From positions 1 through 28,749 of the forward strand of contig CADBUS010000078.1 of NCBI GenBank assembly GCA_902797895.1: DNA of 28,749 bases, read 5' to 3'. The stretch is from an uncultured Bacteroidia bacterium (GTDB taxonomy: Bacteria > Bacteroidota > Bacteroidia > Bacteroidales > UBA932). The notes under the pieces were generated by a model. That model had not been told where the DNA came from and did not search any database. It saw nothing but the letters and a program-made list of their open reading frames with translations. This document shows positions 15,673 through 27,571 of the stretch, piece after piece (positions within the stretch are counted from its first letter, which is position 1; each line of letters starts with the position of its first letter). A program made the translations under genes and the position numbers.

Positions 15673-15680
15673 TACCTTTG
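15673..15680 (+). promoter_or_regulatory. -7 promoter element (TACCTTTG) heading the mce-mmd-V-ATPase run
   Basis: Exact TAnnTTTG just after the yebC terminator and 42 nt before the mce ATG. Confidence 0.7.
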
Positions 15681-15722
15681 CCAAATTAGGAAAAAATAAT
15701 AACAATTTAAATATCACAAACT

Positions 15723-16136
15723 ATGCAGTTAACTCATATTGAGCATCTTGGTATAGCAGTTAAATCCCTTGAGGAGTCTATACCATATTATGAGAAGATG
15801 TTGGGCCTTAAATGCTACTCCATTGAGGAGGTGAAAGATCAGAAAGTTAAAACAGCCTTCTTTAAGATAGGGCAGACCAAGATTGAGCTTCTTGAAAGCA
15901 CAGATCCTGAGGGCACAATAGCCAAATTTATAGAGAAGAGAGGAGAGGGAATACATCACATTGCCTTTGCAACCCCTTCTGTAACAGAGTGTTTAGATGA
16001 GTTAAGCCAAAAGGGCGTTCAGCTTATAGATAAGGCTCCGCGCAAGGGAGCAGAGGGGCTTAATATCGCCTTTTTACACCCAAAATCAACCCACGGTGTT
16101 CTTACCGAGGTTTGCGAGAATCCTAATGAAAAATAG
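15723..16136 (+). CDS. mce: Methylmalonyl-CoA epimerase
   Basis: HIEHLGIAV, KIELLE, GEGIHHIAF, FLHPKSTHGVLTE (VOC metal ligands). Confidence 0.96.
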   Translation: MQLTHIEHLGIAVKSLEESIPYYEKMLGLKCYSIEEVKDQKVKTAFFKIGQTKIELLESTDPEGTIAKFIEKRGEGIHHIAFATPSVTECLDELSQKGVQLIDKAPRKGAEGLNIAFLHPKSTHGVLTEVCENPNEK

Positions 16137-16152
16137 TTAAAGTAAGAATATT

Positions 16153-24656: not shown

Positions 24657-25265
24657 ATGGCAATTAAGTTTCAATATAATAAGACCTCTTTGAACAACCT
24701 TAACAAACAGCTGAAGGTGAGGAAGAACGCCTTGCCTACCCTTAAAAACAAGGAGAGCGCGTTAAGAGTTGAGGTTAAGAATGCAAAGAAAAAGAGCGAG
24801 GAGCTTATTGAGCGCCTTGAGCAGACTTTGCGCTCTTACGACTATTTGGCACCTATGTGGAATGAGTTTGAGAACGGGCTTATATCTGTTAAAGATGTGA
24901 TGCTCAAAACAGAGAAGGTAGCCGGAATTAAAACCCCTGCAATAGAGGAGATTATATTTGAGATAAAGGATTTTGACCTCTTTAAGAAGCCGCTTTGGTA
25001 TTCAGACGGAGTGGAGATTCTTAAAAAGATGGCCAAATATGGCATAGAGTCTGAGGTTTACAAAGAGAAGATGAGGATTCTGGACTACTCCAGAAAAAAG
25101 ACCACTCAAAAGGTTAATCTCTACGAAAAAGTTCAGATTCCGGGCTATATGGAGGCCATAAGAAAAATCAAGCGATATATGGAGGATGAGGAGAATCTCT
25201 CCAAAGCCTCCCAGAAGATTGTAAAACAAAGACACACATTGGAGGAGGAGCAAGAGGATGATTAA
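24657..25265 (+). CDS. atpD: V/A-type ATPase subunit D
   Basis: ALPTLKNKE, KKTTQKVNLYEKVQIP, YMEDEE. Confidence 0.93.
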   Translation: MAIKFQYNKTSLNNLNKQLKVRKNALPTLKNKESALRVEVKNAKKKSEELIERLEQTLRSYDYLAPMWNEFENGLISVKDVMLKTEKVAGIKTPAIEEIIFEIKDFDLFKKPLWYSDGVEILKKMAKYGIESEVYKEKMRILDYSRKKTTQKVNLYEKVQIPGYMEAIRKIKRYMEDEENLSKASQKIVKQRHTLEEEQEDD

Positions 25266-27135
25266 ACCTATGACAAAATACTCCTTTGTGATTTTCCACA
25301 AAGAGGCAGGCGAGTTTTTAGCCAAGCTCCAAGAGATTGGCCTTATGGATATTACGCGCTCTACCAAGCCGGCTACAGCAGAGTCAAAAGAGCTGTTTGA
25401 GAAGATGCAAAAGCTCTCGGAAGCACTCCATACCCTTGGGGAGATTGATAAATCTGTAAAGGATGGCAAGCTCAAAATAGATAAGAAGAGTGTTTTGGAA
25501 GGTGGTGTGTCAAAAGGCTCGGAGGAGGAGCAAGCCCTAATCATTGCCTCTTATACAGAGGAGCTTGCACAACAGAAAAAGAGGATTGAGGGAGAAATAT
25601 CCACTCTCGAAAACGAGCTTAAACTCGCGCTCCCTTGGGGAGATTTCAATCGAGATGATATAGAAAAAATAAAGGCTCTCGGCTACACTCTGCACTACTA
25701 CTGTGTTGCAGAAAAGAGGTTTGAGCCGGCTTTGGCAGAGCAATATCCGTTGCAGGAGATAAGCCGCAACGCAGAGAAGGTATATTTTGTAATACTCTCG
25801 CCCAAAGGAGATAACAGCGCTCTGCCGCCAAGGCTAAAGGAGATTGCAGCTCCCACAAGGGCGCAGAGTGAGATAGCCGGAGATATAGCGCGGCAGCGTT
25901 CCGAGCTTGAGGAGATAAACTGCAAACTCTACCTCCTCTCTCAAAAAAGCGGAGTTATAACAAGCACAATAGATACCCTCAAATCTCGGGCAGATTTGTT
26001 CCTTGCAGCAGAGGGTGCTACCAAGGAGGCGGAGCAGAAGCTCGATATATTCGAAGGCTTTGCCCCTACCGAAAGTGATTCTCAGATTAGCTCATTCTTA
26101 GACTCTTACAGCGGTGTACTCTATCTAAAACAGGAGGCCACCCTACAGGATAATCCGCCTATTGCGCTAAAAAACAATCGGTTTACCAGAATGTTTGCGC
26201 TCCTTACAGATATGTACGGCAGGCCGGCTTACAACGAATTTGATCCTACCCCATATATCGCCATCTTCTTTATGCTCTTTTTTGCAATGTGTATGGGAGA
26301 TGCAGGTTATGGTATATTGCTTATAATAATATCGTTCCTTCTTAAAAAAGCCAAAGGTGCTGCGCAGTTTGCACCGCTTGTGCTCACCCTCGGAATAGCT
26401 ACCACAGTAATAGGCTTTGTGTTGCACACATTCTTTGGGGTTGATATATCGCAAGTTAGCTGGATGCCTTCTGTGGCCAAGAAGTTTATGATAACAGGCA
26501 AAATTGCAGGCTACGATGCCCAAATGCTACTCTCATTTGCCATTGGCGTATTCCATATATGTGTGGCTATGGTTGTAAAGGCCATCTACTCAATAAAGAA
26601 GAACGGCTTTGCCGCCTCGCTCGGCACCTTAGGCTGGACCCTGCTTATAGTTGGCTCAGTAATAGCCGGTTCCATAGCGTTGGCCGGAGTTATGAGCGCG
26701 GCTGTTACTAAAATTGTAATCATCGCGATAGGAATACTCTCCGCCATTGGTATATTTTTGCTCAACGATATTCATCGCAATCCGCTCAAAAACATTGGCA
26801 GCGGACTTTGGGAGACCTACAACACAGCAACCGGCCTGCTTGGCGATGTTTTAAGCTACATAAGGCTCTATGCACTCGGCTTGGCCGGCGGAATGTTGGG
26901 CGCTGCATTCAATCAGCTTGGAGGAATGATAATTGGTGATACAGAGGGCTTTACAATAAAATGGATATTCTTTGTATTAGTGGTTGTACTTGGTCATACT
27001 CTCAACCTTGCAATGTGCTGTTTGGGAGCCTTTGTACATCCGTTAAGGCTTAACTTCTTGGAGTTCTTCAAAAACAGCGGCTACGAGGGGAGCGGCAAAA
27101 CCTATAAACCTTTGACAATAAATAATAATAACTAA
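25258..27135 (+). CDS. atpI: V/A-type ATPase subunit I (a)
   Basis: Soluble N-half; YGRPAYNEFDPT, MGDAGYG, DVLSYIRLYALGL (essential Arg), HPLRLNFLEFF. Confidence 0.96.
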   Translation: MIKPMTKYSFVIFHKEAGEFLAKLQEIGLMDITRSTKPATAESKELFEKMQKLSEALHTLGEIDKSVKDGKLKIDKKSVLEGGVSKGSEEEQALIIASYTEELAQQKKRIEGEISTLENELKLALPWGDFNRDDIEKIKALGYTLHYYCVAEKRFEPALAEQYPLQEISRNAEKVYFVILSPKGDNSALPPRLKEIAAPTRAQSEIAGDIARQRSELEEINCKLYLLSQKSGVITSTIDTLKSRADLFLAAEGATKEAEQKLDIFEGFAPTESDSQISSFLDSYSGVLYLKQEATLQDNPPIALKNNRFTRMFALLTDMYGRPAYNEFDPTPYIAIFFMLFFAMCMGDAGYGILLIIISFLLKKAKGAAQFAPLVLTLGIATTVIGFVLHTFFGVDISQVSWMPSVAKKFMITGKIAGYDAQMLLSFAIGVFHICVAMVVKAIYSIKKNGFAASLGTLGWTLLIVGSVIAGSIALAGVMSAAVTKIVIIAIGILSAIGIFLLNDIHRNPLKNIGSGLWETYNTATGLLGDVLSYIRLYALGLAGGMLGAAFNQLGGMIIGDTEGFTIKWIFFVLVVVLGHTLNLAMCCLGAFVHPLRLNFLEFFKNSGYEGSGKTYKPLTINNNN

Positions 27136-27151
27136 TAAACAATAAACAATT

Positions 27152-27571
27152 ATGAACGAATTGTTAGGATATCTCGGACTTGGTTTAATGCTTGGCCTTG
27201 CCGGAATAGGAAGCAGCATTGGAACAACCATTGCAGGTAATGCAGCAGAAGGAGCCTTAAAGGTTAATCCGGAAAAATCCGGTAACTATATGGTTCTCTC
27301 CGCACTCCCTGCAACACAGGGTATTTATGGATTCGTAGCCTTCCTTGTATGGCTTAGCAAAGATTTTGCAGCCAATGGTCTGCTCCTCTTTGCTGTGGGT
27401 ATAAGTGTGGGAGCCCTCTGTTTGCTCTCATCTATCCGCCAAGGAAAAGTTTGCGCCAACGGAATTGTTGGTGTATCTCAGGGGCACAATGTATTCACCA
27501 ATACCCTTATTTATGCAGCCCTTCCGGAATTCTACGCCATATTGGGCCTTGTTGGAGCACTAATGATATAA
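27152..27571 (+). CDS. atpK: V/A-type ATPase subunit K (4-TM proteolipid) with Na+-site signature
   Basis: [23 protein letters not shown]; four hydrophobic segments. Confidence 0.95.

Follow-up and report, generated by a model that had tools for sequence, protein, structure and literature searches.

Is the reduced V-type (vacuolar-type) ATPase of Bacteroidales a Na+-driven ATP synthase or a Na+ pump? The existing data on this question are fitness data from Bacteroides fragilis (PMC10197588). In this study, we analyzed a locus at which the genes of such an enzyme directly follow those of a biotin-dependent methylmalonyl-coenzyme A (CoA) decarboxylase (Mmd), predicted by homology to pump Na+. 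The locus lies on contig CADBUS010000078.1, and the window is this entire contig, 28,749 nucleotides (nt) in length. It belongs to a rumen Bacteroidales metagenome-assembled genome (MAG) of 1.68 Mb in 215 contigs that is 83.7% complete, and its closest relative by MmdB is the water-buffalo rumen MAG RGIG8120 (95% identity). On balance, we lean towards a reading in which two adjacent Na+-bioenergetic operons have been fused in this genome, so that expression of the V-ATPase is tied to the mmd promoter, and the V/A-type (vacuolar/archaeal-type) enzyme works as a reversible Na+ machine that is probably the only rotary ATPase of the cell. Since these bacteria are abundant rumen propionate producers, the ATP yield of their propionate pathway bears on rumen energetics.

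The junction between mmdB and the V-ATPase genes

An earlier note on this DNA had described a single promoter box at 15673, followed by 12 same-strand genes with gaps of at most 29 nt or overlaps. The gene distances and a box scan confirmed this description. As shown in Table 1, 12 same-strand genes lie downstream of the box TACCTTTG, or 13 with the glmM-like gene, and every spacer is 29 nt or shorter or is an overlap. Since the ATG of the glmM-like gene is 6 nt past the stop codon of subunit K, the apparent unit has 13 genes or more and is cut off by the end of the contig. Judging from this spacing, the glmM-like gene is probably in the same transcription unit as the V-ATPase genes.

The 29-nt junction between mmdB and the gene for subunit E was examined by hairpin and box scans. 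No hairpin was found in 20293-20321, and no TAnnTTTG motif occurs on the forward strand between 19516 and 20987, in agreement with the earlier description of a gap that carries neither signal. These results show that the V-ATPase genes here have no preceding terminator and no recognizable promoter of their own.

Two candidate signals near the junction were rejected. The best match in a sigma-70 scan (TTGCAA-18 nt-TATAAT, 20334-20363) is 3' of the E start codon and therefore cannot drive E, and the sigma-70 model is unsuited to Bacteroidota. Two weak stems in the coding sequence of mmdB near 19995-20030, reported by a loose hairpin detector, have a mismatch and a poor T-run and were absent from a stricter scan; they were not counted as terminators.

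The junction was also found in RNA libraries. A 182-nt contig from a bovine metatranscriptome is identical to 20265-20446, with zero mismatches, and spans the gap. RNA libraries also yielded perfect-match contigs within mmdB, spanning the mmdC/mmdB junction and within the gene for subunit K. Because the metatranscriptome contig is independent of the MAG, the compact junction is real and not an assembly artefact, and because it spans the gap, co-transcription of the V-ATPase genes with mmd is likely. In the fusion that we favor, read-through from the promoter at 15673 would be the sole source of V-ATPase and glmM transcripts, and the levels of these transcripts would track decarboxylase expression up and down.

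Spacers and neighborhood in relatives

We surveyed the mmdB-to-E spacer at 80 species loci. The E gene lies less than 1 kb from mmdB in 35 species; in these the gap ranges from 18 to 609 nt, and its median is near 122 nt. A GC-rich hairpin followed by a T-run was found in 32 of these 35 (gaps 89-609 nt), and 29 of the 32 have TAnnTTTG too, mostly 30-48 nt 5' of the E start codon. The other three, with gaps of 18-25 nt, have neither hairpin nor box. As a control, the detector scored 0 on 37-75 intra-operon gaps of relatives. Within the same genus, gaps measure 108-493 nt in 16 of 20 species, with a hairpin in all 16 and a box in 15; the only members with neither are G017 (19 nt), G046 and G001 (55 and 56 nt) and the window. 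The upstream end of the unit carries a comparable signal, as a TAnnTTTG-type box is present in 17 of 28 yebC-to-epimerase gaps of relatives.

Since the spacer of relatives usually holds a hairpin and a box, two operons are the usual state. By this comparison, the ancestral and prevailing state is a pair of adjacent predicted operons, and the single predicted unit here is a derived loss, in which a putative terminator-promoter module of about 100 nt is gone and 29 nt are left. In a tree of MmdA, MmdB, A and B, the short-gap tips (the window; L032; L018 with L059) fall in three separate clades amid long-gap relatives. On the basis of this tree, spacer loss has recurred at least three times in the family. 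The earlier note had proposed that generator and consumer of the sodium-motive force are co-regulated here. For this genome the proposal agrees with the missing terminator, the missing recognizable promoter and the spanning RNA contig; as a conserved design it did not stand, since most relatives have a terminator and a promoter in the gap.

Other features of these spacers were also observed. In species locus L095 (G021:C13:94100-95200), the 493-nt mmdB-to-E spacer contains a unit of about 100 nt repeated about three times in tandem, which may be a small mobile or repeat element. Same-strand inserts of metH (B12-dependent methionine synthase) and metF between mmdB and E occur at L019:11151-15671 and L028:11222-15437 and are found in several species, including MAGs labelled Ca. 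Cryptobacteroides; species with this insert have decarboxylase clusters without the epimerase gene. The K-to-glmM spacer is 2-4 nt in three compact relatives and about 93-127 nt in most others measured.

The extent of the neighborhood across the order Bacteroidales was measured as the position of MmdB (PF03977) relative to V-ATPase subunit D (PF01813). Nearly every species of the genus has the subunit D gene on the same strand as mmdB, about 4.4-4.7 kb further downstream. Of 37 genera sampled in the family, at least 14 show the same spacing, and six more a spacing of 6-10 kb. Outside the family, 200 genomes representing about 140 Bacteroidales families were compared; none has D within 10 kb downstream of mmdB, and none of the loci labelled Phocaeicola or Porphyromonas has a V-ATPase within about 10 kb of mmdB. 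The statement in the earlier note that the two clusters are separate in Bacteroides is thus borne out by these loci and families. The complete block (yebC; epimerase-mmdA-delta-mmdC-mmdB; E-DUF2764-A-B-D-I-K; glmM) is conserved in the family, including the complete genome of Bacteroidales bacterium CF. By a hand count across the order, mmdB is present in about 85% of genomes with V-ATPase D vs about 71% of those without, a weak difference among relatives that are not independent. In two species of the same genus (G004:C9 and G185:C11), mmdB is followed by more than 50 kb of sequence, with no V-ATPase D anywhere and with F-type gamma present. We found no paper on mmd-V-ATPase linkage in the literature searched.

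These observations suggest that the V-ATPase may be connected to the sodium cycle by its family-wide linkage to a propionate-pathway Na+ decarboxylase, and the repeated fusion into one transcription unit strengthens this genomic hint. Sister species with and without the spacer, and species with the V-type enzyme only, the F-type enzyme only or both, offer natural test cases.

Gene products and the predicted sodium cycle

Table 1. Features of the window from yebC to the contig end. Gene identities are from profile searches with Pfam and NCBIfam.
Feature	Position	Strand	Remarks
yebC	14840-15580		upstream of decarboxylase block
Rho-independent terminator-like hairpin with T-run	15605-15633	+	13-bp stem, 6 GC; closes upstream yebC unit
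Bacteroidota-type -7 box TACCTTTG	15673-15680	+	43 nt 5' of epimerase ATG; sole such box ahead of the gene string
Methylmalonyl-CoA epimerase	15723-16136	+	TIGR03081, 153.3 bits, exceeding cut-off of 115; glyoxalase fold
MmdA-type acyl-CoA carboxyltransferase, alpha subunit	16153-17703	+	PF01039, 679 bits, full length
Small membrane (delta) subunit	17718-18710	+	OAD_gamma (PF04277) at residues 212-288; N-terminal lamin-tail domain
MmdC biotin carrier	18737-19117	+	PF00364; Ala/Pro linker; AMKM biotinylation motif (EAMKME in translation)
MmdB, carboxybiotin decarboxylase beta subunit	19141-20292	+	predicted Na+-translocating; PF03977, 503 bits; TIGR01109, 479.6 bits vs cut-off 190.6
mmdB-to-E junction	20293-20321	+	29 nt, AT-rich; no terminator, no promoter box
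V-ATPase subunit E, peripheral stalk	20322-20933	+	NF002424, 122.7 bits, under cut-off; weak ATP-synt_B match
DUF2764 protein	20923-21606	+	PF10962; start TTG 20923 or GTG 20926
V-ATPase catalytic subunit A	21590-23341	+	Pfam profile
V-ATPase subunit B	23331-24647	+	Pfam profile
V-ATPase subunit D, central stalk	24657-25265	+	PF01813
V-ATPase subunit I, a-type stator	25258-27135	+	Pfam and NCBIfam
V-ATPase subunit K, rotor subunit	27152-27571	+	two ATP-synt_C repeats; complete predicted Na+ site
glmM-like phosphoglucosamine mutase	27578-28749	+	6 nt past K stop; truncated by contig end

The decarboxylase subunits were examined for residues linked to ion transport. MmdB, the OAD_beta protein, is present in one copy in the whole MAG. 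An alignment to OadB (6IVA) showed that D203, Y229, N373, G377, S382 and R389 of OadB are all retained in MmdB; we take these to be key residues from the mutagenesis work of the Dimroth laboratory. The small membrane subunit differs from its counterparts in characterized Mmd enzymes, in which a lamin-tail domain fused to the N-terminus of the OAD_gamma subunit is not known. This domain has about 190 residues, and homologues of similar length lie at the same position in many relatives. A second gene pair, encoding a carboxyltransferase and a biotin carboxyl carrier protein (BCCP), was observed at G000:C40:629-2727 on a 4.6-kb contig of this MAG.

Subunit K was aligned to NtpK of Enterococcus hirae (2BL2). 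L52, T55, Q56, Y59, Q97 and E126 of K correspond to L61, T64, Q65, Y68, Q110 and E139 of NtpK, so that all five Na+ ligands of NtpK and Y68 are retained. Genes for V-ATPase subunits F and G were not found in the E-K cluster, which has no space for extra genes; the rest of the genome was not searched for them.

The second gene of the cluster encodes the DUF2764 protein. Its AlphaFold2 model has a predicted local distance difference test score of 84.7. In an exhaustive VIA search of 48,161 chains, the top fold matches were Thermus subunit C (1r5z, Z 8.8) and mammalian subunit d (6vq6, Z 8.7), followed by a next match at 5.6; Z values below about 13 are not decisive for helical proteins. Foldseek gave no significant match of the model in the PDB. 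The model points to DUF2764 probably being a shortened V-ATPase C/d subunit of about two thirds of the C/d length. If true, this would assign a role to the 'unknown' second gene of the Bacteroidales V-ATPase operon (PMC10197588). E and DUF2764 diverge far faster than the rest of the locus, with 52-56% identity to the nearest species vs 87-95% for A and B and 92-95% for MmdB.

We also searched the MAG for the rest of the propionate pathway. The earlier proposal of a succinate-to-propionate conversion had been made to depend on methylmalonyl-CoA mutase, and both mutase subunits are encoded on contig C4 of the MAG; in the genus as a whole, 29 of 30 species encode a mutase. Profile searches also found the fumarate reductase FrdA, CoA-transferases and two NqrB/RnfD homologues. 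The succinate/propionate CoA-transferase step has two candidate genes in the genome; one of them, with an AcetylCoA_hydro/CoA-transferase domain (8972-10273), lies 5.4 kb upstream in another operon of the window. In the predicted pathway, succinate from fumarate reductase would be converted to succinyl-CoA by a CoA-transferase, the mutase would form (R)-methylmalonyl-CoA and the epimerase its (S) form, and Mmd would convert (S)-methylmalonyl-CoA to propionyl-CoA with export of Na+. The V/A-type enzyme, with its Na+-binding K ring and apparently as the sole rotary ATPase of the MAG, would interconvert the sodium-motive force and ATP. ATP would be made as long as Mmd and any Nqr or Rnf pump, and the enzyme would run in reverse when these are idle. 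The direction in which the ATPase works is the weakest link of this scheme. Net ATP synthesis by the V/A enzyme is plausible, because a Na+ enzyme with a V-type c subunit makes ATP (PMC9171764) and the same role has been hypothesized for B. fragilis (PMC10197588).

The part of this scheme that concerns the sole rotary ATPase depends on the F-type enzyme, for which the earlier note had suggested a check of the genome. A search of the MAG, which is 83.7% complete, found neither the gamma nor the a subunit of an F-type enzyme. In other species of the genus, F-type gamma is absent in 8 of 14 (seven of the eight are 92-97% complete) and present in 6 of 14. The family includes V-only, F-only and mixed genomes, and F-type gamma was found in every sampled genus without V-ATPase D, except for the single 82%-complete genome of g34. 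We consider it highly probable that the F-type enzyme is truly absent from this species.

A stronger version of the fusion is that the reduced seven-subunit Na+ V/A-ATPase is the only ATP synthase of the cell, is encoded on the same mRNA as Mmd, and that recurrent spacer loss was selected to lock the expression of both. If true, decarboxylation phosphorylation would here run through a V-type enzyme; we consider this stronger version unlikely.

Several observations weigh against the fused, reversible Na+ system that we favor. The RNA evidence consists of contigs (Logan), which are no proof of a single mRNA and could stem from DNA carry-over. The spanning contig extends just 28 nt into mmdB, so transcription could still start within the 3' end of mmdB. 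As the MAG encodes NqrB/RnfD homologues and fumarate reductase, Mmd may share the generation of the Na+ gradient with other systems, in contrast to Propionigenium. Given the completeness of the MAG and the gamma subunit in six of 14 congeners, the absence of the F-type enzyme is probable and not certain, and an F-type enzyme accompanies the V-type one in G017, G001 and G046, the other short-gap species of the genus. G004 and G185 retain mmd without V-ATPase D. In 13 further species, 1.7-7.7 kb are inserted between mmdB and E; the four annotated inserts are metH with metF (two loci), a TonB-dependent receptor gene and Omp85/DUF389 genes. Since the unrelated genes yebC and glmM belong to the same conserved block, adjacency by itself is not enough to show functional coupling. 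Plain family synteny may account for the adjacency, as the prevailing two-operon state, the insertions and the co-conserved yebC and glmM argue, and the fusion may reflect intergenic streamlining and not selection for co-regulation. The closest structurally characterized K subunit, that of E. hirae, is from a Na+-extruding hydrolase.

An alternative is that the V-ATPase is a Na+-extruding ATP hydrolase of the E. hirae type, serving Na+ homeostasis or membrane energization in the Na+-rich rumen, with the adjacency an inherited synteny and the spacer loss a neutral streamlining. We regard it as rather unlikely. Its K subunit matches that of a sodium V-ATPase that is a working Na+ pump (PMC10197588), and with one ion site to every four helices the ion-to-ATP ratio is low. 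The unrelated genes within the block and between the clusters fit this alternative, and the hand count across the order shows only a weak enrichment of mmdB in genomes with V-ATPase D. Streamlining agrees with the K-to-glmM spacer, which is compacted too in this genus, and with the small genomes of the group (1.5-2.4 Mb). However, if there is no F-type enzyme, Na+ exported by Mmd and any Nqr or Rnf would have no ATP-yielding return path in a cell with such a hydrolase. A V-type c subunit is no bar to synthesis (PMC9171764), spacer loss has recurred at this same junction, and the adjacency has been maintained across many genera.

The other two alternatives concern the operon itself and the substrate of the decarboxylase. 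The V-ATPase genes may be driven separately, by an unrecognized promoter in the 3' part of mmdB or by a non-canonical one in the AT-rich gap, and the start of the spanning RNA contig at 20265 is in keeping with this. A TATCTTTG box lies within mmdB at 19515, TAnnTTTG is commoner than chance on the forward strand of the window (11 found vs 4.2 expected from shuffles), and some long-gap relatives are also without a perfect box (L016, L081, L010 and G002). However, no further TAnnTTTG follows between this box and 20987, the position at which relatives carry their box falls in the mmdB coding sequence here and holds no match, and with no terminator to block read-through, mmd transcription should reach E anyway. 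A separate promoter is therefore improbable. We rejected for this genome, as very improbable, that the substrate is oxaloacetate, glutaconyl-CoA or malonyl-CoA and not methylmalonyl-CoA. The best family of MmdA is TIGR01117, at 803.7 bits under its cut-off of 998.8 bits, and a profile search found no biotin carboxylase domain (PF02785) in the MAG; both points would allow another substrate. Against them stand the epimerase, the first gene of the operon and above its equivalog cut-off, the mutase of this MAG and of the genus, the alpha subunit, which is a CoA-ester carboxyltransferase and not of the OadA type, and the separate carboxyltransferase-BCCP pair on contig C40.

Comparison with known systems

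The closest functional precedent is Propionigenium modestum, in which MmdABCD and a Na+-F1FO ATP synthase carry out decarboxylation phosphorylation (reviewed in PMC8085960). As in P. modestum, a biotin-dependent Mmd, Na+-pumping by homology, would be fed here via mutase and epimerase, with a Na+-binding rotor as a possible consumer of the gradient. Unlike in P. modestum, the rotary enzyme is V/A-type and not F-type, the genes for generator and consumer are in one apparent transcription unit, and Mmd is probably not the sole Na+ pump, given the NqrB/RnfD homologues and fumarate reductase.

The subunit set resembles the seven-gene V-type ATPase operon of B. fragilis (PTOS_002482-88), for which the role of a Na+-driven synthase has been hypothesized (PMC10197588). 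Both have the same reduced gene set, with DUF2764 second, a duplicated K subunit and conserved Na+ ligands. In contrast to this locus, no V-ATPase follows mmdB within about 10 kb in the Phocaeicola-labelled loci, the closest Bacteroides relatives sampled; in addition, B. fragilis possesses an F-type enzyme, whereas none was found in this MAG.

The E. hirae Ntp V-ATPase (NtpK ring, PDB 2BL2) shares the six conserved NtpK residues and one carboxylate per duplicated K subunit. Unlike the enzyme of this cluster, with its seven genes and no F or G, the E. hirae enzyme is a Na+-extruding hydrolase. The E. hirae Ntp operon also has more genes, F, G, C and H among them.

For ATP synthesis, the relevant precedent is a bacterial Na+ A1AO enzyme with a V-type c subunit (PMC9171764). 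It is like the enzyme here in being bacterial and in having a Na+-coupled rotor with a V-type (doubled) c subunit, and ATP synthesis at low driving force was shown for it. It differs from this locus in being archaeal-type, in its acetogen host and in having no link to a decarboxylase.

The nearest genomic counterparts are Bacteroidales bacterium CF (CP006772) and the rumen MAG RGIG8120, with the same gene order as here (yebC-epi-mmdA-delta-mmdC-mmdB-E-DUF2764-A-B-D-I-K-glmM). Their mmdB-to-E spacers measure 173 and 105 nt, unlike the 29 nt here, and both contain a hairpin and TAnnTTTG, which points to two transcription units in those genomes. The locus is thus a new arrangement of known systems, and no part of it is new in itself.

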